Shown piece after piece: positions 1 to 9,250 of a stretch of 64,000 bases of DNA. Under the pieces are notes generated by a model. That model made no database searches, had not been told where the DNA came from, and was given only the letters and a program-made list of their open reading frames with translations. The stretch is from positions 1-64,000 of the IMG/VR virus record IMGVR_UViG_3300042449_001328. One strand, 5' to 3'. This DNA is from a virus. A program made the position numbers and the translations under genes. The first letter of the stretch is position 1. Each line of letters begins with the position of its first letter.

Positions 1-187
1 TGCAGGAGAATTGTTGTATCAGTTCTGCGTCCTGATCATCTAGTATCAGATCAAAAGTTTCATCCAATATCCTATCGTCTTTTGCCTCAATAACACAATA
101 GTTATTGTCACCTATATTGAATACCTTGTTTGGTTTAAGCCAAGTGTGAGCAAGATTGTTATCTATTAGGTATTGCGAAATATTCAT
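1..187 (-). CDS. 5' part of a gene running off the window (MNISQYLIDNNLAHTWLKPNKVFNIGD...); possibly a replication gene such as a DNA polymerase
   Basis: Open frame from ATG at 187, overlapping the integrase stop (ATGA), to the window edge. Function guessed only from its position after helicase/primase. Confidence 0.55.
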   Translation of the reverse strand, partial: MNISQYLIDNNLAHTWLKPNKVFNIGDNNYCVIEAKDDRILDETFDLILDDQDAELIQQFSC

Positions 188-996
188 ATTGGCAATTGAA
201 CTTTGGATAATAATTTAGTGGATACATGTGTGTAAATTTCAGTGGTTTTTACATTACTATGCCCTGCTATCTTTTGTATCAACCTTAAATCAGTACCATT
301 TTCTAACAGGTGGGTAAATGAAGAATGCCTTAAATTATGGATACTGGTTTTTGTATCAATGTACTTTTTGTAAATCTGTTGACAGCTTCCTATTGAATAT
401 TTGGGTGAATTCTGGCCATTAAATAAAAATTCTACTGGTTTGTAATTTACAAAATAAAATCTAAGTAGCTTTAATACTGTTTCTGACAATGGAACTATTC
501 TATCCTTTCTACCTTTTGCATTGTTTATATGAATCAACATTCTTTTTGAATCAATATCGTTTATTTTTAAATTAACAATTTCTGACACCCTTAGCCCTAC
601 TGAATAAGCTAGGGTTAGTATCGTCTTATGTTTTAAATTTGGTATAATAGCTATCTTTCCTATTAAATCTTGTTGGTCTATTACCCTAGGCAACTTCTTT
701 TCGCCACGGGGTCTTTTTAGTTTATAAAATTTTTTAGGTTGAGATAATATCTTTTCATAATAAAACTTGATGCAATTAATGATCTGATTTTGTTTTGTTG
801 AAGACAATTCGCCATTGTCCAATAATTTATTCAAATAACCAACTATCTCATCATAAGAAATGTGCCTTACATTTTTATTTTCAAATGAGTTTACAAATTC
901 CTTAAAATAAGACAAATAAACTTTTATAGTGTTTTCTGAATAATTCATTCGTTGAAGTGTGGTAACATAATCTTCAAACAACTTTAAATTTTTCAT
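184..996 (-). CDS. Tyrosine recombinase, integron-integrase-like (SAM-like N-terminal domain plus catalytic domain)
   Basis: Catalytic residues R (GLRVSE), K (AKGRKDR), HxxR (HNLRH), H (AGH), Y (TEIYTH); N-terminal YSENTIKVY. No obvious IntI-specific insertion before box II. Confidence 0.92.
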   Translation of the reverse strand: MKNLKLFEDYVTTLQRMNYSENTIKVYLSYFKEFVNSFENKNVRHISYDEIVGYLNKLLDNGELSSTKQNQIINCIKFYYEKILSQPKKFYKLKRPRGEKKLPRVIDQQDLIGKIAIIPNLKHKTILTLAYSVGLRVSEIVNLKINDIDSKRMLIHINNAKGRKDRIVPLSETVLKLLRFYFVNYKPVEFLFNGQNSPKYSIGSCQQIYKKYIDTKTSIHNLRHSSFTHLLENGTDLRLIQKIAGHSNVKTTEIYTHVSTKLLSKVQLPI

Positions 997-1018
997 ATAG
1001 GATAGTGTTGGTAATCAA

Positions 1019-1213
1019 TTAGTTAAATGGACATTGATATATATGATTGTTGGTGGCAATGCCGCCCCGCTCCAATGGTGCTTCGGGCATGGAAGCTATT
1101 CCTAGCACCGCCCACGCTTCGGGGCGGCACTGTTCGCGCCAACGCGCAAAGGCCGACCCAAGCCCACCAACATGGGGTTTAAAACATAGGGCAACATTTA
1201 GCGCGTTTTTCAT
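1019..1213 (-). CDS. Small cassette ORF (starts in the loop of site 1, crosses the core as ...KPHVGG...)
   Basis: 64 aa ORF with the same geometry as the other cassette ORFs; GC-rich, coding status uncertain. Confidence 0.35.
   Translation of the reverse strand: MKNALNVALCFKPHVGGLGSAFARWREQCRPEAWAVLGIASMPEAPLERGGIATNNHIYQCPFN
1031..1062 (+). other. Putative attI-like primary recombination site
   Basis: Lone GTT core (GTTGGTGGCAATGC at 1049) just upstream of the integrase start, with no preceding hairpin arm. Its complement CCACCAAC (1164-1171) closes the first cassette. Confidence 0.55.
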
Positions 1214-1867
1214 AGGTAGTTTCGTGGGAAGGTTTTAGAATTAATTGCCGCCCACGCGCGAGAAAGAGATAACCCAAACAAACGGGTTTTCATTCCATGA
1301 TTGTTGACCGTTGACTTTTTCCCATAACATTTGCCATGCAAGTTTAGGTGTACTGGATGTTGGTGAGCAAGCCCCTTCCTTGTAGCAATCAGCAATAGAA
1401 ATACCTTGCAGTTTTTCTGCGCTTATATCTTCAATCCTTAACTTTATTCGGCAAGCCTGTTTTGGCATAAAAATGCTTGGTTTCCATCTCCACTCTTCCA
1501 TAGTTTCCCAATCAGGGTCTGTGGCCCTGTAAACATATCCGTTATCTTCTCCAGCAAAATCAACGTATTGCCATGTTTCACGCACCCAAAGTATGTCTCC
1601 AATTTGTCCGTATGGGCATTGTGTTTTGATTGATTCCCACCACTTCGGGTTACTGGCGGTTTCCATCCATCCACGAAACGGTTCCTTTACTATCCTTCTT
1701 GTTTGTGTTTTGCTGCCATCTAAAATAGCCCTTACCATTGACCCAGAAAATAAAATTGGGTGTTCCTTTGCCCGCCCTTCGGCAATTAATTCTAAAACCT
1801 GTTCGTTTTCCATAGTTATTTTATCTGTTTAGTTGCCCTACGATTTTAAACCCCTTATACATTATGC
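1165..1867 (+). repeat. attC-like site 1 with a giant (~635 bp) loop
   Basis: CACCAAC 1165-1171; arm GGGGTTTAAAACATAGGGCAAC 1174-1195 pairs with GTTGCCCTACGATTTTAAACCCC 1832-1854; ATTATGC 1861-1867. Confidence 0.75.
1241..1813 (-). CDS. ASCH/PUA-like phage protein
   Basis: EHPILFSGSMVRAILDGSKTQTRR, CPYG..GD.LWVRETW, WKPSIFMP and W..NPFVWVISF motifs of a widespread phage family. Confidence 0.8.
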   Translation of the reverse strand: MENEQVLELIAEGRAKEHPILFSGSMVRAILDGSKTQTRRIVKEPFRGWMETASNPKWWESIKTQCPYGQIGDILWVRETWQYVDFAGEDNGYVYRATDPDWETMEEWRWKPSIFMPKQACRIKLRIEDISAEKLQGISIADCYKEGACSPTSSTPKLAWQMLWEKVNGQQSWNENPFVWVISFSRVGGN

Positions 1868-2092
1868 GTAATGCTCCGAATACTTCTGTTCAAGTTCAAG
1901 CATTTTATCCCATATCTCTTGGTGGTGGACACTATCCCAAGCACATAATCTTGGACTTTTCTTTTTCTCTTGCAAAAATGCTTTCAGTTCATTGTAACAA
2001 TTAGCACTACGCATAACATCGGCTATACGCAATTGCTCTTCGTATTTTTCAACGGTTTCTTTTGCTTTTAAGTAATCTTCTTTTTTTATCAT
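1862..2092 (-). CDS. Cassette hypothetical protein
   Basis: 76 aa; start lies in the loop of site 2; stop lies in the ATTATGC core. Confidence 0.7.
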   Translation of the reverse strand: MIKKEDYLKAKETVEKYEEQLRIADVMRSANCYNELKAFLQEKKKSPRLCAWDSVHHQEIWDKMLELEQKYSEHYA

Positions 2093-2141
2093 TTTGTTTA
2101 ATTTTTAAGTTCGCAACTGCGTATAGCCGTAGCCGTTAGGC
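2011..2141 (+). repeat. attC-like site 2
   Basis: GCATAAC; CGGCTATACGCAATTGC 2020-2036 / GCAACTGCGTATAGCCG 2113-2129; GTTAGGC 2135. Confidence 0.85.
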
Positions 2142-2145
2142 ACAA

Positions 2146-2385
2146 TTAAACCCAACTCTTCCAATGTGTAGGTGTGTAATAAACATACATACTACCATCA
2201 GGCAACCACCAAAGTTTACCATCAAACTTTAATTCTTGTTCGTTCCTTGAACCGTTTTCATCTTCAATTTTGGTCATCATCACCCTATTTTTTGGTGGAT
2301 GCTCTTCTGAAATTTTTTTCCACATAATAAAATTAACTGTGCCTAACAACGTATATAATGGATACGCCAATAAGCGGTTATACAT
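2146..2385 (-). CDS. Cassette hypothetical protein (DUF551-like, W.....PP...PTHW)
   Basis: MWKKISEEHPP...YTPTHWK resembles the phage DUF551 family; the true start may be the internal Met. Confidence 0.65.
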   Translation of the reverse strand: MYNRLLAYPLYTLLGTVNFIMWKKISEEHPPKNRVMMTKIEDENGSRNEQELKFDGKLWWLPDGSMYVYYTPTHWKSWV

Positions 2386-2434
2386 TTATTTAAGTTTATC
2401 GGTGGCGTACCCATCATATACGCAACCGTTATAG
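2341..2434 (+). repeat. attC-like site 3
   Basis: GCCTAAC; CGTATATAATGGATACGCCA 2350-2369 / TGGCGTACCCATCATATACG 2403-2422; GTTATAG 2428. Confidence 0.85.
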
Positions 2435-2457
2435 GAAATTTTATTTTTCCCATCGCA

Positions 2458-2808
2458 CTACGAAAAGTGCGAGAAAATGAACAGATAAGGTTCTGCAATT
2501 GGTTCATCTTCTTTCAGCTCAAAAACTTCACGGTATTTTGATTTTACCTTTTCTGCGTCTAAATTTTTGAAATCCAAGTGGACAAAATCCCATCCTTCAT
2601 ATTTATCTCCACCGCTTTCAATCCGTATTCCAAATACGTTATATTGTCCACACATTCCATCGCTTACAAGTGTAAATTCTTCGCCTTGATGTCCTTCAAT
2701 CATTGGCAAAAATTTATCATCCGATAAATCAATTTTACCGTTTTCGTTTTTTAGTTCATAAGGTAATTTATACCCGTAAACAATGTAATCTGTTCTATCT
2801 ACTCCCAT
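2458..2808 (-). CDS. Cassette hypothetical protein
   Basis: 116 aa ORF filling the cassette between sites 3 and 4. Confidence 0.75.
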   Translation of the reverse strand: MGVDRTDYIVYGYKLPYELKNENGKIDLSDDKFLPMIEGHQGEEFTLVSDGMCGQYNVFGIRIESGGDKYEGWDFVHLDFKNLDAEKVKSKYREVFELKEDEPIAEPYLFIFSHFS

Positions 2809-2850
2809 TTTTAAATTTGTTTAAGCCAACCCACAAAAAATAAAACTATC

Positions 2851-2947
2851 CTATAACACGGGTTTGGCGTAATGCCACCAGATAGTTTGTGCCTAAATTT
2901 AAAGTTCGTGCAAGGTGGCACTAACGCCAAGCCCGAAATCGTTAGGC
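2851..2947 (+). repeat. attC-like site 4
   Basis: CTATAAC; CGGGTTTGGCGTAATGCCACC 2859-2879 / GGTGGCACTAACGCCAAGCCCG 2914-2935; GTTAGGC 2941. Confidence 0.85.
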
Positions 2948-2960
2948 ACAATAAAATTTG

Positions 2961-3185
2961 CTACCCAACGCACTCCCATTCAACATCAGGAAATTGTTCA
3001 GCAAATCTTTGTTTCTCCTCTGCCTGTCCCTGCTTTACTTCTTTCAATACCTGTTCTTTTGGTATTTCTAAACTTGGCTTATAATTGCTTATACAAAATG
3101 GGTTTCCAGCCCACAAGTTCCAATATTTACGCCCTTTCTTTAACCATGCGTAGTCAGCTATTTGTTCAAATCCTTTAAAATTCAT
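2961..3185 (-). CDS. Cassette hypothetical protein
   Basis: 74 aa ORF filling the cassette between sites 4 and 5. Confidence 0.7.
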   Translation of the reverse strand: MNFKGFEQIADYAWLKKGRKYWNLWAGNPFCISNYKPSLEIPKEQVLKEVKQGQAEEKQRFAEQFPDVEWECVG

Positions 3186-3204
3186 AATCGCAAATTTTAC
3201 AGAT

Positions 3205-3296
3205 GCCTAACATGCGGTAAAAGTAAGCCGCAGAAAGGCTGTTACTAAATTTGAGCAGTCTACAAAGCGGCCTACTCTTACCGCCAACCGTTAGTG
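3205..3296 (+). repeat. attC-like site 5
   Basis: GCCTAAC; GCGGTAAAAGTAAGCCGC 3214-3231 / GCGGCCTACTCTTACCGC 3267-3284; GTTAGTG 3290. Confidence 0.85.
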
Positions 3297-3302
3297 GTAA
3301 TG

Positions 3303-3524
3303 CTATAAACACACACCATTAAATGTGTTCAAATAGTTTTTGAACTTTATATAAACATCAAGCATATCGTCAACATGTATTTGTTGCTTATCAAAAACTA
3401 TTTTAGCACTACCTGTATCTAACACAACATTTGGTGGTGTTACCGTAAAAGCACTACCACTAACAGCAAGTATATTCAATTGCTCACTTTCTTGGTTATT
3501 TTCAATTTTATCTTTCATACCCAC
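3303..3524 (-). CDS. Cassette hypothetical protein
   Basis: 73 aa; start in the loop of site 6; crosses the arm and core as QLNILAVSGS. Confidence 0.65.
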   Translation of the reverse strand: MGMKDKIENNQESEQLNILAVSGSAFTVTPPNVVLDTGSAKIVFDKQQIHVDDMLDVYIKFKNYLNTFNGVCL

Positions 3525-3590
3525 TCTTATTTGTTAATTAAACTTTTGTTTTTCAAAGTCGCAACTAATTATACTTGCAACTCGTTAGCA
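3458..3590 (+). repeat. attC-like site 6
   Basis: CACTAAC; GCAAGTATATTCAATTGC 3466-3483 / GCAACTAATTATACTTGC 3561-3578; GTTAGCA 3584. Confidence 0.8.
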
Positions 3591-3594
3591 GCCA

Positions 3595-3846
3595 TTAAGG
3601 TAGCGTTTCCAATTCATCGTGACTAAATGTTAAACAAGCTATTGTCCCTTGCGGCACTTGTGGACAAAACTCACCCCACATATTCCATGCCTTGCCATCT
3701 TTTGCAACCACTTGACAAGCAATGAATCTATCATCAGGCAATCCTTCAAGTGCCTTTTTAAGAGTTCCAACCGTATGAAAATTAACGGCTGCTAACACAT
3801 TATTTGCGTCAGTGGGGGTTTCGTGCTTTTTAGAATCTGTCTGCAT
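3595..3846 (-). CDS. Cassette hypothetical protein
   Basis: 83 aa; start in the loop of site 7; crosses the core as DANNVLAA. Confidence 0.7.
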   Translation of the reverse strand: MQTDSKKHETPTDANNVLAAVNFHTVGTLKKALEGLPDDRFIACQVVAKDGKAWNMWGEFCPQVPQGTIACLTFSHDELETLP

Positions 3847-3922
3847 AATTTAAAAATTTGTACTGTTAATAATCTTTGGTGGTGTAACGCCCCACCGAAC
3901 GCAAATAATCGTAACGTTACCT
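3790..3922 (+). repeat. attC-like site 7
   Basis: TGCTAAC; ATTATTTGCGTCAGTGGGG / CCCCACCGAACGCAAATAAT (ends 3909); GTTACCT 3916. Confidence 0.8.
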
Positions 3923-3929
3923 GCAAGTG

Positions 3930-4142
3930 CTACATTTCGGTTTCAAATAAACTTGGTGCAGAAAAACTTTTATTAAAATTTCCCACTCTCTTATTTATAA
4001 TTTCAAAATACTTTTCGTCAATCTCATAACTCACAGTATCAAAACCTAATTCATTTGCAACTTTGCTTGTCGTTCCGCTTCCTCCAAACGGGTCAATAAT
4101 TGTTTCGCCTTCCTTTGCAGTTATCTGTATAAGATGGGTGTT
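3930..4142 (-). pseudogene. 5'-truncated DNA N4/N6-methyltransferase fragment
   Basis: Manual translation IQITAKEGETIIDPFGGSGTTSKVANELGFDTVSYEIDEKYFEIINKR...ETEM* (motif I DPFxGSGTT); in-frame stop upstream and no start codon. Confidence 0.8.
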
Positions 4143-4253
4143 TCAAACGCCCCCGCGCTGGTTTAATTTTAAAAAAGTTTTAGTTTGTATTTCATATTTA
4201 AGTTTGTGCTATGCCTGTTTCAGCAGCTACACTTGATACATTAGTGGCAAGTG

Positions 4254-4412
4254 CTACATATTGCTATCCAAAAGTTTTATGCTTCTGTATATCGGTATAA
4301 ATAAAAGCCAATAGGTTGTTACAAGATGTACCTCTAAATGAGATTTATCTTTAAAACCAGCATCAAAACTTTTCACATACATTTTTCTTTTGTGTTCTGT
4401 TCTTTTTATCAT
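4254..4412 (-). CDS. Small cassette protein (52 aa, below the ORF-track cutoff)
   Basis: MIKRTEHKRKMYVKSFDAGFKDKSHLEVHLVTTYWLLFIPIYRSIKLLDSNM* fills the cassette 4240-4444. Confidence 0.65.
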   Translation of the reverse strand: MIKRTEHKRKMYVKSFDAGFKDKSHLEVHLVTTYWLLFIPIYRSIKLLDSNM

Positions 4413-4437
4413 TTTCGTTTAATTTAACCGCACCAGC

Positions 4438-4571
4438 CACTAACATTGCATTGCAAAAAGCAGGGCTGACGTAATGCTTTCAACAATGGGAATACTATTA
4501 AACTTCACCTATAACGCATTGGGCAGACGTATTCCAATTCCCCTGCCTTCTGCAATGCTTTGCCGTTAGCG
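4438..4571 (+). repeat. attC-like site 9 (site 8 survives only as a right half, ATTAGTG at 4240)
   Basis: CACTAAC; GCATTGCAAAAAGCAGGG 4448-4465 / CCCTGCCTTCTGCAATGC 4541-4558; GTTAGCG 4565. Confidence 0.85.
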
Positions 4572-4577
4572 GCAACC

Positions 4578-4793
4578 CTAAACGACCGCAGTAAACGTGG
4601 TTAAAGATTTACGAACGGTTACTTCTTCGCCTTTTTCGACTTCATTGTAAGCAAGAATAGCTTTTGCCTTTCCTTTGGTAATTATACCACTTGCCCAAGT
4701 TTCATCTTGATGGGTAAGTTGCATTCTAAATTTCCCTTTTCGTTGAGATACTACATCGTAAATCTTTCCAACTTCTAAATTTTGATTTTCCAT
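4578..4793 (-). CDS. Cassette hypothetical protein
   Basis: 71 aa ORF filling the cassette 4565-4828. Confidence 0.7.
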   Translation of the reverse strand: MENQNLEVGKIYDVVSQRKGKFRMQLTHQDETWASGIITKGKAKAILAYNEVEKGEEVTVRKSLTTFTAVV

Positions 4794-4899
4794 TTTATTT
4801 TGATTTGTGAAGAAGGGCAGCCGCTAACAACGTGCTTGTGCCATTTAAAAATGCGTCAAAGTTCAGTGCCTTTAATCAAGTTCGGTGAGCAAAATAAAT

Positions 4900-5289
4900 T
4901 TAAACAACCCCACCGCACTCCTTCGTAGAAAGTTCGTGTTGCAATTGAAAGTACACGTCAAAGAGTAATTCAATTTCCTTTGCCCGTTCGACAATTTTTC
5001 CTTGTATAATCTCACGGAACTTGTCATAGTTTTCAGGCTCTATTTTATTATGCCAAGAGTGTTTCCATGTGTCCATATCAATTACTATTTTGATAAGTTC
5101 TTTTAAGGGGTCATCACCAAAACAATTTGGTTTCTCCCACCTTAATTCAAACCCGTCTTTGATAATGTACTCTTTGTCTCCTGAAAACGGTCTTACAATT
5201 TCGTAACGTTTCGCAGTCCCTTCAATTGTTGTACCTCTAAGGCCAACACCAATTTTACTAAGTTGGTTGATAAATTCTAAATGATCCAT
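4900..5289 (-). CDS. Hypothetical protein in the array
   Basis: 129 aa ORF. Confidence 0.7.
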   Translation of the reverse strand: MDHLEFINQLSKIGVGLRGTTIEGTAKRYEIVRPFSGDKEYIIKDGFELRWEKPNCFGDDPLKELIKIVIDMDTWKHSWHNKIEPENYDKFREIIQGKIVERAKEIELLFDVYFQLQHELSTKECGGVV

Positions 5290-5608
5290 CGCTCAAGTTG
5301 TTTAAATTTATTTTGTTTAGTATTTCAAATTAATATCGTGACACACAATCCAAAGCCTTGCTATCCGTGCCTAGTTTCGGGTTGGGTGCGCCAGCTGCTA
5401 ACAACGTGTTTGCCTCATGGCTGAAAGTGCTATTTGATATTTTTGTTTTCATCTATAAAATTTATCTGTTCAAAAATCTATCCGTTACCCACCGCATTAG
5501 AAACTACTAACTCATTTCCGGTGTGCTTCGTTTCTTTTTCCACTTGGCGGTATCATGTCTATTTTGCGCTTTACTCATCTCTATTTATTTAGTTCGTGTT
5601 CGGCCATT

Positions 5609-5863
5609 TTACTGACACATATTTGCGGCTACATTAGTTGTAATTCTACTCAACACCATTCTGTTTAAGATACTCATTGAACATACCTTTCTTTTAAGTC
5701 CTTCAATCATATAATCTTCTAACTGCTTGTTAAGTTGAGAAGAAAGCCTACCTATAACATCCGCTATAAGAATATTTGTTCTTTCTGCATTCATTGGTTG
5801 TAATTTAAAGTTAAGTAGTTCTAAATCCGCGTAATTGAAAAAGCGTCTGAGTTCGTATTTCAT
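5609..5863 (-). CDS. Probably chimeric or degenerate cassette ORF
   Basis: Crosses core 5752 as ILIADVIGR; the flanking cores are not complementary. Confidence 0.35.
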   Translation of the reverse strand: MKYELRRFFNYADLELLNFKLQPMNAERTNILIADVIGRLSSQLNKQLEDYMIEGLKRKVCSMSILNRMVLSRITTNVAANMCQ

Positions 5864-6008
5864 AAGTCAGTCCATATAGGTGTAGCCACAAAATTGTAAT
5901 CTCAATCGTTTACTTTTACAAAATGAGAATCGCCAGTCATTTTCATCAAAGCCGTAAAGGTCTCCTCTGTAAAGAATAAACTCGCATAGCCACTTTCCAT
6001 CTTGGTTA

Positions 6009-6224
6009 CTACAACAAAGGAATTTTGTGTATAAGTGTTTCATAATTTCGTTTACATTTGTTAGTGGCAGTTAACTCACCGCCAACATTGTGTTTGAGTA
6101 ATTTTCGTTCACGTTCCAAAACAACAGCTTCATCAAGTAATGAAACTATATATCTAACATCAATCATTGATACTTCGCCAATTTCTCCAGCTATCAATAT
6201 TTGTTCTTTAGTATATTTTTTCAT
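6009..6224 (-). CDS. Array-distal small ORF coupled to the primase stop
   Basis: ATG overlaps the primase TGA; crosses the cores as HNVGGELTATN. Confidence 0.55.
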   Translation of the reverse strand: MKKYTKEQILIAGEIGEVSMIDVRYIVSLLDEAVVLERERKLLKHNVGGELTATNKCKRNYETLIHKIPLL

Positions 6225-7195
6225 AAATAATCTAAGTTTATTTGCATAAAATTAACACTTTTTGTCATAAGTTCCAATGATTGTTCCTCATTTATATCTC
6301 CAGGGTCAAATCCGTTTAAATGAGCTACCCTTACCTCAAAATGGGTTGATAGGTATGCAGCTATTGTTTTTACTTTATCCAAAACGTCAGCTTCAAACCA
6401 TAACCAAATGACAGTCAAGCCTTTATCCTTTAGTAGTTGAACTTGTTGTTCACTTATCTTAGCACCAAATGTAGCCACGCACTTTAACCAATCTTGAGTG
6501 TGTAACTGTAGATTATAATCTGTCTTTGTCTTTGACAATATACCTTCCACTAGGATTACATCAGTTGTTTTGCCTTTTATTATTTCATCGTATCCAAACA
6601 GCATTTTACTGAAATCACTCATCGAGTTCTCATAACGTAGGTACTTTTTGCCCCCTGTTTTTTTTATTTCTTCATTGTAAGCATCTATCCATGCTTTGCT
6701 TTTTATAGACCTTGACACATATCCTGTTATCTTGCCTTCCATTTCAACTAGGAAAGTAATGTAGTCTTTCTTTAGTCTTGATACTCCTATCTTATATTGC
6801 TCGAATTGATAGGACTGCATTCCTCTTTCGTTTTGAAGATATTCGTTTTCAAATACCCTCTTCCATCCTACAGGAGGTTGAACTTCTGGTAATTCTTGTT
6901 GCTGTATTATGTCTTCACTTGTTTCAAATACATCTAGCAATAATCCTTCTGGGTCTATTTCTCTTTCTTGTACAAATTCTTTAAATTTATTTAAGTGTTT
7001 TAAAAGTGTGTATATATTCCCCGTGAAGCCACATTTGGACTTTCTGAAGCAACTGAACGGGTGGTTATTTTCTACAATAGAAATTCCAAACTCATCATGA
7101 CCACACTGAGGGCATAACCCGTAAATATCTTTACCGTCAGAACTGGGTCTTGGATTGGATATGAGTTGCTGCAACTGGTCTTTTGTGAGTTTCAT
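6221..7195 (-). CDS. DNA primase (Zn finger + TOPRIM)
   Basis: CPQCG...C...C zinc finger; VILVEG TOPRIM motif; DPGD. Confidence 0.85.
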   Translation of the reverse strand: MKLTKDQLQQLISNPRPSSDGKDIYGLCPQCGHDEFGISIVENNHPFSCFRKSKCGFTGNIYTLLKHLNKFKEFVQEREIDPEGLLLDVFETSEDIIQQQELPEVQPPVGWKRVFENEYLQNERGMQSYQFEQYKIGVSRLKKDYITFLVEMEGKITGYVSRSIKSKAWIDAYNEEIKKTGGKKYLRYENSMSDFSKMLFGYDEIIKGKTTDVILVEGILSKTKTDYNLQLHTQDWLKCVATFGAKISEQQVQLLKDKGLTVIWLWFEADVLDKVKTIAAYLSTHFEVRVAHLNGFDPGDINEEQSLELMTKSVNFMQINLDYL

Positions 7196-7868: not shown

Positions 7869-9250
7869 TTTTGCTTTGGAGCGTTCTTTATTATCTTGTT
7901 ATTGATGGGGTCCCAAAATCTTTTGTTGGTCTCTTGTATGTCTATAAATCTGCCTTTATTTCTATCTTGTGCTATATGATAAGTAGATTCCCATGAAAGT
8001 ATTTTTTGAAACCTGAATGCCTCTTCATGTATGCGCATTATGTCTTTATCATTTTCATCGTCTGTTTGATTTAAAGTAATTGTATAAGCAAAGGGGTCTA
8101 CTGTAGCTTTTAAATTTGAAATATTCTCTCTTGTGATAACAAAATTAGGATCGTTGTAATCTTTTTTCTCTATACTAGATGCTTGAGTGGCAGTGGCGCA
8201 AAATATTTTAAACTCAGTTGCTATGTTGACAATTTTTTCCGCAACAGCTAATTTTTTAGCCCTCTCCCCCTCTGCATTAGTTCCATATCTCTTTCCGTCA
8301 CCTGGATCAAATTTTTCAAGATAATCAAAAATTGCCCATTTTATATTATACTCCTTCATTAAATCCAATATAGCTTGCCTACACTCTGCTATGGAAGCAG
8401 AATTAAATTGTTCATAAGAAACAATGAATATTTCCCCACATTGAGCTAGGAAAGATTTTCTAGCCTTTTCAATAGTCTCTACATCTTTGCCTGTCAAATC
8501 CCCTTTCCTTATATCCATCATAGGCACACCAGTCCACATTGCATCATAAGCATCTTCAACTTCTGATTTTGTACCTTCAGCTTGAAAATGAATTCCATTA
8601 TGCCCCCTGAAAGCCAAATTGTGACCTATTGATCTCAAACAAGTACTTTTACCTACTCCTTTTCTAGCAATCACTAACATTGCCCTTCCAGGTTCAACCC
8701 CTCCCTTAGTGTGATAATCAAAAGCAGGTATGCCAATAGGCCACTTTACATTTGTAAAATCCCTTTGCTTTCTTTCTTGTTGCCGTCTATCAAAATCAGA
8801 AAATACTCTAGTGTGAAGTTTTGAAGTTAAACAAAATGAGTTTATCTCTTTGCTCTCCTTCTCAAGCAGCAACATAGCTTTCTCATGTTCCTGCTTATTG
8901 TACATCTCCTTAACGTCTTCATGTAGTTTTTGAAACCTGCCTTTCTTGATGAAAGATTCAAAGGACTGCATGATCTGGTCTTTACTATCATGTATTGAAG
9001 TTTCCCTAATGTTGTTCAGTACATTTATCAAGGAAGGTTTTTGAGGCAAGTTTTGAGATAATGTCCCTAAAGTAGGGATTTTTGAATGTATGCCATGATA
9101 GTCAAATATGTATTTAAAAACTTCTTTATACTCCTCTCCTTTTATGAAAGAATAATTCAAATGCTGTTTGACAATCTCTGTCACATCTTGACTAGATAGA
9201 CATAGCTTTGCCAGCTCGTTGAGATAGTTGCTTGAAAGTTTATCTGACAT
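7865..9250 (-). CDS. Replicative DnaB-like helicase
   Basis: Walker A ARKGVGKST, catalytic E in QAEG, Walker B IFDYLE, TATQ. Confidence 0.88.
   Translation of the reverse strand: MSDKLSSNYLNELAKLCLSSQDVTEIVKQHLNYSFIKGEEYKEVFKYIFDYHGIHSKIPTLGTLSQNLPQKPSLINVLNNIRETSIHDSKDQIMQSFESFIKKGRFQKLHEDVKEMYNKQEHEKAMLLLEKESKEINSFCLTSKLHTRVFSDFDRRQQERKQRDFTNVKWPIGIPAFDYHTKGGVEPGRAMLVIARKGVGKSTCLRSIGHNLAFRGHNGIHFQAEGTKSEVEDAYDAMWTGVPMMDIRKGDLTGKDVETIEKARKSFLAQCGEIFIVSYEQFNSASIAECRQAILDLMKEYNIKWAIFDYLEKFDPGDGKRYGTNAEGERAKKLAVAEKIVNIATEFKIFCATATQASSIEKKDYNDPNFVITRENISNLKATVDPFAYTITLNQTDDENDKDIMRIHEEAFRFQKILSWESTYHIAQDRNKGRFIDIQETNKRFWDPINNKIIKNAPKQK

Follow-up and report, generated by a model that had tools for sequence, protein, structure and literature searches.

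Can a recombination site of the attC type carry a complete gene inside its own hairpin? This question is raised by a virus genome from IMG/VR (IMGVR_UViG_3300042449_001328, a single record of 89,689 bp), of which the first 64 kb (positions 1 to 64,000) were analysed here and are referred to as the window. On its minus strand, which carries nearly all large open reading frames (ORFs) of the window, an array of hairpin sites alternates with small ORFs from about 1040 to 5400, upstream of a gene for a tyrosine recombinase. In one of these hairpins, site 1, the two arms are so far apart that a whole ORF lies between them. We give a probability of about 0.5 to the reading of site 1 as a copy of a conserved, gene-bearing hairpin module of lake phages, that is, an attC-like variant whose terminal loop serves as a gene slot.

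A preliminary description of the window, made from the sequence alone, had placed the arms of site 1 at 1174–1195 and 1832–1854, complementary at 21 of 22 positions plus one bulged base and about 635 bp apart, at normal distances from their cores and with a whole gene between them. Inverted-repeat search, DNA folding and comparison with other units all bear this out. Read on the minus strand, the 23-nt outer 5' arm (1854–1832), which has the extra base, and the 22-nt outer 3' arm (1195–1174) form 11 + 11 pairs, that is 21 Watson-Crick pairs and one G-T, and leave one bulged T; 636 nt lie between them, the hairpin measures 681 nt from arm to arm, and the ORF at 1241–1813 (190 amino acids, aa) is fully enclosed. 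A 6-nt spacer (1855–1860) connects the 5' arm to a 5' box, ...CGCATAAT (1861–1868), within a 15-nt extension (1861–1875) that is complementary to the cassette start at 2003–2016. On the other side, a 2-nt spacer (1172–1173) separates the 3' arm from the GTT box, GTTGGTGG (minus strand of 1164–1171). These spacers of 6 and 2 nt compare with 4–7 nt (5' box) and 0–3 nt (GTT box) at the seven ordinary sites of the window. Site 1 therefore has the architecture of an attC site (AAT-6 nt-23-nt arm ... 22-nt arm-2 nt-GTT, with a one-base asymmetry) but not its length, at 681 nt against 57–141 bp and with a 190-aa ORF in the loop. The 5' box and spacer together (1855–1872, minus strand) may also resemble the XerC arm and central region of the Escherichia coli dif site.

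When the region 1155–1885 was folded as DNA, the long-range stem was kept in both the minimum-free-energy structure and the centroid structure, on the minus strand as well as on the plus strand. Each outer arm occurs only once in the window, and the long hairpin is thus the sole pairing possible there. Furthermore, an independent lake run (X2) contains a 3,046-nt contig identical to the window across 1116–2700, which shows that site 1 is no assembly artefact.

A second inverted repeat, overlooked in the preliminary description, is nested within the first. It is perfect over 21 nt (1230–1250 with 1780–1800, minus strand); its 5' arm (1780–1800) constitutes codons 5–12 of the enclosed ORF, and its 3' arm (1230–1250) holds the stop codon, so that the gene takes both its start and its stop from the frame around it. 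The whole genome has only one other perfect inverted repeat that reaches 15 nt with its arms within 2.5 kb, a 19-nt repeat round the ORF at 4900–5289. As a control for chance, we counted repeats in which a small internal loop separates two perfect runs, each 9 nt or longer, with the arms 100–1500 nt apart, in the genome and in 60 block shuffles of it. Repeats of that quality are present in at least four places in the 89,689-bp genome, all at 1.1–5.3 kb and hence inside the array, compared to a mean of 0.13 per shuffled genome (6 of the 60 shuffles contained any).

The same frame is found in other phages. An exact scan for the arm pattern returned 20 loci, 5 from IMG/VR and 15 from metagenomes, some of them the same contig in two collections; complete units are present in 12 of them, contig ends truncate 5, and 3 have no relation to the family. 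The latter (L084, L087 and L089, an 'AAGT' variant) were dropped as chance matches, L087 and L089 lying beside ribosomal-RNA-like sequence. The remaining 17 viral or metagenome loci outside the window share the outer arms with the same asymmetry: the 23/22-nt difference is constant in complete units, and the 3' arm is identical or, in L074, one base different. Searching with the 18-nt leader pattern gave 12 loci, the related ones being L074, already found, and L130 and L133, both with variant arms. A 16-nt tail pattern gave 37 loci, and everything beyond the 5 known ones looked like chance matches; the inner-arm sequence used as an exact pattern had no match in IMG/VR. Counting L130 and L133 there are nine unit types, with loops of 346–636 nt where the arms are exact and 281–636 nt when variant arms are included.

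Alignment of the nine units defines the order of the frame as 5' box, 6-nt spacer, arm, 18-nt leader region, ATG, about 13 leader codons (MENETKNELITEG; in the window MENEQVLELIAEG), G-rich box, cargo, second G-rich box, inner 3' arm, 34-nt tail, arm, 2-nt spacer (AT or TT in all nine) and GTT box. Conserved sequence reaches 50–70 nt inside each outer arm. In the window, all on the minus strand, the leader region (1814–1831), the ATG (1813–1811) and the first leader codons make up a conserved stretch at 1801–1831, and the conserved tail (1196–1229) contains a second copy of 'leader region + ATG' (ATG at 1213–1211), the two forming a direct repeat that matches at 16 of 19 positions. The G-rich border boxes are G1 (1770–1780) and its direct repeat G2 (1248–1260), the latter overlapping the inner arm by 3 nt and conserved in all nine units. 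The core-like GTGGGCGGCAAT noticed earlier at the end of the gene, and taken there for a possible relic boundary, is this conserved border box together with the start of the second stem. The direct repetition of G1 and G2 extends over about 9–10 nt, and the two boxes would stand side by side atop the inner stem if it formed.

What lies between the G-rich boxes differs from unit to unit. In an all-against-all protein comparison, eight cargo contents are mutually unrelated; the sole homologous pair is formed by the cargos of L078 and L130 unit 1, and other similarity is confined to the first 11–19 residues. Two cargos match Pfam families (DUF551 and DUF5662). The cargo ORFs measure 81–190 aa and are always on the strand of the frame, and four units end in a frame-encoded R-x-G-G-N. 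The inner stems vary by unit and fall into five arm families, but within a unit the two arms are always cognate: such duplexes have -20 to -35 kcal/mol, whereas most non-cognate combinations reach -7 to -18. In L130 unit 2, which has an 81-aa ORF in a 281-nt loop, the outer arms carry compensated changes and keep the same bulge. Single units with both arms intact are found in the window, the L072 type, L074, L081 and L085. Other arrays do have genes in their loops, and one frame with at least eight unrelated gene contents looks like a reusable gene slot rather than an accident. The earlier suggestion that cargo can be carried within the site itself gains support from this comparison, and also from whole ORFs in 166–225-nt loops of relatives.

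As a side observation, the frame-encoded leader is conserved as protein, M-E/K-x-E/K-...-L-x-x-E/K-G (1775–1813 in the window; also L072, L074, L078, L081, L085, L130 and L133), and ends in a hydrophobic residue-x-E/K followed by G. This end could be a protease or capsid-targeting signal; if the leader were such a processing or targeting signal, every captured protein would be delivered with the virion.

In the cargo gene of the window (1241–1813, minus strand), residues 18–186 of the 190-aa product form the body, which belongs firmly to phrog_874 (E 1e-62), and residues 1–17 and 187–190 come from the frame. The preliminary description had called this gene ASCH-like and complete. A complete 190-aa gene is indeed present, but the label holds only weakly: PF04266 matches two homologs (L038 and L033) at E 0.008–0.011, with 17.4 and 16.8 bits, below the gathering cut-off of 21.2, and the window protein itself has no Pfam match at E<=1. 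Comparing a profile of four homologs with solved structures gave nothing relevant. The homologs in L038 and L033 are members of ordinary overlapping operons; each has a start of its own and extends further at the C-terminus. Aligned with homologs, the first 17 and last four residues (VGGN) of the window protein have no counterpart, and the homologs run 8–10 residues further. This loss of its own start and C-terminus relative to free-standing homologs fits capture of the gene by the frame. A second copy of the cargo is present in L088, with 44 synonymous and 15 non-synonymous codon differences from the window; the phrog_874 body is under purifying selection.

We then asked how site 1 relates to the recombinase and the ordinary sites of the array. 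The recombinase gene (184–996, minus strand; 270 aa, PF00589 at E 5e-33, Xer/IntI-like) lies downstream of the array on the same strand as all cassette ORFs, and this layout is repeated in related loci, IMG/VR holding 69 loci with related recombinases. The protein scores 186.6 bits against NCBIfam XerA_Arch, below the cut-off of 220, and 95 against PRK15417, where the cut-off is 435; its 270 aa compare with 315–337 model positions. It falls below the thresholds of the integron-integrase models and does not qualify as a member of the IntI family. For the sites we used the signature AAC-(3–8 nt)-arm...arm-(0–4 nt)-GTT. It occurs in nine rows on the minus strand of the window, that is seven distinct sites, one second-register repeat and one cassette-flank pair, and in one row on the plus strand. 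Of the 226 short-loop inverted repeats in the window and L001–L047, 80 show the signature when read on the recombinase-sense strand and just 1 when read on the opposite strand, a polarity which identifies the gene-sense strand as the 'top' strand of array sites. In addition, the start of a cassette is complementary over 14–21 nt to the box at the end of the same cassette.

Some unique-arm sites of the relatives (L022, L010 and L027) have whole small ORFs in loops of 166–225 nt, and at other sites an ORF starting within the loop continues across the 3' arm. The 636-nt loop of the window therefore stands at the long end of a continuum. Longer candidates for genes in loops in L019 (loop 1625), L010 (1018) and L047 (605) were dropped: each arm has a nearer partner, and they are consequently pairs of duplicate sites.

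The strongest competitor to the gene-slot reading comes from the sequence beside site 1. An ORF-less, GC-rich 'cassette' (1049–1171, minus strand) lies between the complementary plus-strand boxes GTTGGTGG (1049–1056) and CCACCAAC (1164–1171). It has about 65% G+C against 36% for the genome and an internal stem (1061–1069 with 1121–1129), and has no match in Rfam. We considered it as coding sequence read from the tail ATG; the frames differ among the window, L074 and L088, so that it is not conserved as protein. It contains C-rich complements of the G boxes. Homologs of this element follow site-1-type units in L074 and L088. L088 has a tandem of two units, and behind each of them comes a 112-nt GC-rich element with GTTGGTGG...CCACCAAC at its ends. 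The 3' arm of one unit can pair there with the 5' arm of the next, giving a compact palindrome between genes (about 190 nt; 3' arm - GTT box - GC-rich element - AAC box - 5' arm). On this basis the arms could be orphan half-sites: the functional element would be the compact palindrome, the genes would be ordinary cassettes between such repeats, and in the window recombination with the upstream small-ORF cassette would have removed most of the upstream repeat, leaving arms that flank the gene by descent and a hairpin without a role.

Besides the tandem array of L088, the half-site explanation is favoured by L086, from another sample, where two 3' arms are 815 nt apart, the same spacing as in L088. 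The near-invariance of the arms is expected of a repeated site, and the GC-rich element is present in several copies in lake metagenomes, where contigs break at its boxes: in summed contigs of four lake runs its depth is about 3–14 times that of its flanks, and contigs sharing it part at 1049/1050 and 1172, within 2 nt of the GTT/AAC boxes. Box-adjacent divergence and raised depth together fit exchange at the boxes. Against it, the compact register reads GTT...AAC at its outer ends, opposite to the 80-to-1 family signature; conserved sequence extends 50–70 nt within each arm; the unit-specific inner stems pair only across the cargo; and intact single units exist in several contexts. Moreover, the arms are better conserved than synonymous sites, the four stem arms of the window and L088 copies showing 3 differences in 88 positions and the cargo body 65 in 500. 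We regard the half-site explanation as unlikely, while taking it seriously. The possibility raised beforehand that the arms belong to two separate sites fused by deletion is thus borne out by half. The tandem palindromes of L088 make 'two separate sites' a legitimate second register, but for the window three points argue that the one-site reading is no artefact: box order and spacing like those of the other array sites, the single arm copies and the inner stem that pairs only across the cargo.

In two further contigs, one from run X7 (1641–1847) and one from run X2 (1802–1840), the cargo or leader region is shared with the window and the sequence diverges inside the outer 5' arm, after 1847 and 1840, respectively. 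Such contigs may represent variants whose arm is shorter or otherwise different.

A different possibility is that the stems act in RNA. They would pair the ends of the cargo mRNA in the manner of rRNA processing stems, and would provide RNase III processing from a polycistronic early transcript, end protection or control of translation start; leader, ATG and tail would then be expression signals, and the cargo would vary by ordinary recombination between conserved flanks. From the predicted structure, only the geometry would match stems of the RNase III processing type. A single ORF, including its start and stop, is framed exactly by the stems, with codons 5–12 and the stop codon falling in the inner one; the leader region and ATG are conserved, all units have their cargo on the strand of the frame, and units persist in genomes without a tyrosine recombinase. 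What an RNA device leaves unexplained are the AAC/GTT boxes at fixed spacing, the breakpoints at those boxes and the link of the sites to Xer/IntI-like recombinases in 47 related loci. We rank it just after the half-sites and likewise think it improbable.

Because perfect 21-nt inverted repeats surround a coding segment and a tyrosine recombinase lies 180 nt past the neighbouring cassette, we also considered an invertible on/off switch, in which the recombinase would flip the segment between the inner repeats or the outer arms and silence the cargo. Read from the sequence, inversion at the inner repeats would leave a reading frame that stops at about 28 codons. The flipped state is seen neither in the window nor in any of 13 complete units outside it (12 loci), and no strand-changing joint occurs in the four runs, both searches being of contigs only, in which rare forms could be missed; units also exist without any recombinase. 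A switch is accordingly very improbable. Even harder to credit is a passenger-carrying miniature transposon, similar to a mobile insertion cassette, with the arms as terminal inverted repeats mobilised in trans. Invariant 22–23-nt terminal inverted repeats round variable passenger genes, in different genomic contexts, would suit such an element, but the nine aligned units have no target-site duplications, their flanks are the conserved 6-nt/2-nt spacers and AAC/GTT boxes, and the conserved frame continues inside the repeats.

Returning to the gene-slot module, we hypothesize that its two stems, 43 bp in all, would hold the ends together so that it folds as one site in single-stranded DNA. By box order, the hairpin belongs to the same cassette as a small upstream ORF (1862–2092, minus strand; 76 aa, or 51 aa if it starts with the ATG at 2013), and the module would be moved as a unit with this ORF through recombination at GTT boxes. 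Cargo between the conserved frames might be exchanged when co-infecting phages recombine homologously, or else through insertion at the G-rich apex.

Several points weigh against this reading. The loops of 350–640 nt far exceed known attC sites (57–141 bp; PMC5027507), and they should fold slowly; the structural evidence would fit an RNA-level role equally well. The 5' box of site 1 ends in AAT instead of AAC, and the L088 arms pair equally well across the GC-rich element between the tandem units. Against the integron-integrase model TIGR02249 the recombinase reaches 161.6 bits in two stretches, below the cut-off of 265. A PF00589 protein is absent from the carrier record of L075, which is 91% complete, and in the L133 record (99% complete) the sole such protein is about 24 kb from the unit. 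Contigs of the four runs, which cannot show rare forms, contain no excision, inversion or deletion joint at the cargo; stretches that no contig covered, and small word shares in other runs, were not counted as evidence. Finally, there is no empty slot among the 12 complete units, the smallest exact-arm loop being 346 nt.

A stronger proposal is that the double-stem hairpin is a dedicated gene-capture device, or natural cassette factory. Here the empty unit would be an attC-like hairpin with one G-rich loop at the top of its inner stem; a foreign gene fragment would enter that loop with duplication of the G box and would be fused in frame to a ready start, a 13-codon leader and a stop, resulting in an expressible unit movable by recombination. 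If true, this would provide a direct view of how a gene is joined to a recombination site, an unsolved step in the origin of integron cassettes. The preliminary description had likewise proposed a route for creating cassettes or capturing genes. The truncated gene body is consistent with capture, but neither an empty slot nor an insertion intermediate or recombination junction was found, and we consider a dedicated device doubtful.

Like integron attC sites, the sites of the array are imperfect palindromes; they have ...AAC and GTT... boxes, and the arm beside the AAC box is longer by an extra base; as in integrons, strand polarity is strong, the cassette start is complementary to the end box, and the array lies beside a tyrosine recombinase. 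The recombinase, by contrast, has 270 aa and falls below the IntI model cut-offs, and the genes here point towards the recombinase gene on the same strand, whereas integron cassettes are transcribed away from a divergent integrase gene. Chromosomal integrons, for example the Vibrio cholerae repeats, have a species-specific, nearly invariant palindromic repeat associated with many unrelated genes, a classic hint that genes join a ready-made site. The module shares this combination of one nearly invariant palindrome with many genes; in chromosomal integrons, however, the gene lies between repeats, and here a frame with start codon, leader codons and a unit-specific inner stem encloses it.

In T4-type phages, mobile ORFs are flanked by short promoter/stem-loop sequences, which are direct repeats of a regulatory stem-loop. 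Our units resemble them in their conserved short flanks, their variable small accessory genes and a hyperplastic region suited to homologous exchange, but differ in that the flanks are two nested inverted repeats with recombination-site boxes.

Known attC sites measure 57–141 bp and have short or branched terminal loops (PMC5027507). Site 1 differs in its 636-nt loop holding a gene with its start and stop, and in its spacers of 6 and 2 nt, compared to about 5–6 nt on each arm. Genes inside or at attC sites are described for group IIC-attC introns and IS1111-attC insertion sequences, and a part in joining genes to attC sites has been proposed for the introns (PMC3001079, PMC8876359). Such elements are self-mobile through a reverse transcriptase or transposase of their own, enter the site close to its 5' end and run antisense to the cassettes. 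The genes of the module are small, unrelated phage genes, sense-oriented and at the hairpin apex. PMC8876359 discusses a short ORF within an attC site that may help the next cassette to be translated. The ATG of the tail (1213) and those in the long loops of this array are similar, and the GC-rich element resembles an ORF-less cassette; the short attC ORFs, however, comprise a few codons, against full genes of 81–190 aa here. Phage-borne integron components, that is attC-type sites and clusters in temperate and virulent phages, have also been described (Qi et al. 2023, PMC9892861), and, judging by its abstract and section titles, that study concerns canonical attC sites from standard tools and reports no sites with a gene in the loop. 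A phrase-based literature search for genes or ORFs inside attC sites, covering articles without their supplementary files, turned up only the review passage on a short attC ORF and no description of a gene-bearing attC loop.

How a gene becomes associated with an attC site is a long-standing question in integron biology, on which this hairpin-frame family bears. It offers a natural series in which a near-invariant hairpin frame is combined with eight unrelated cargos, with sharp G-box borders and in-frame fusions to a frame-encoded leader and tail, and so makes gene-attC joining testable with simple substrates. It also indicates that recombination-site-like hairpins tolerate, or at least persist with, loops of 280–640 nt. 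Cassette-finding tools are affected, since size limits would miss such long-loop sites, and the finding is relevant to the design of structure-specific recombination sites within coding DNA. For phage biology, the module represents a compact means of swapping small accessory genes among lake phages.

A blastn search of 1–6300 against 50,697 deposited phage genome records for close relatives gave just two 60-nt chance matches, and no Rfam family matches 900–6400 at E<=1. The second gene-enclosing perfect inverted repeat of the window (19 nt; 4890–4908 with 5297–5315, minus strand) surrounds the ORF at 4900–5289; the stop codon lies in its 3' arm, in front of which (4909–4919) there is a G-rich box of the same kind as G2. 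The flank at 4815–4888 is 95% identical to part of L085.

Three sites of the array with loops of 71–77 nt (2003–2143, 3457–3592 and 3788–3924) each contain an ATG from which an ORF runs on, without a change of frame, across the 3' arm and the GTT box and enters the next cassette, and the crossover point would therefore fall within coding sequence. Two of the three are 75% identical and share the same translated frame. At the array end beside the recombinase gene, relatives read GTT box - tcgttttaatg - AAC box - (t)ATCATATAT (L001 9889–9930, L022 274–310, L133 minus strand 3245–3280); in the window, at 1038–1056, the GC-rich element replaces the 11-nt loop of the relatives and is followed by AATCATATAT. 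This array end may be the counterpart of attI.

Finally, related arrays contain perfect AT-rich inverted repeats of 17–21 nt built around TTTTAAAA (L004 8594–8614 / 8848–8868, with similar pairs in L010, L015 and L018). These repeats tightly flank single ORFs within otherwise ordinary cassettes, the 5' arm about 11 nt ahead of the ATG and the 3' arm overlapping the stop, and the same arm sequence recurs in different phages.

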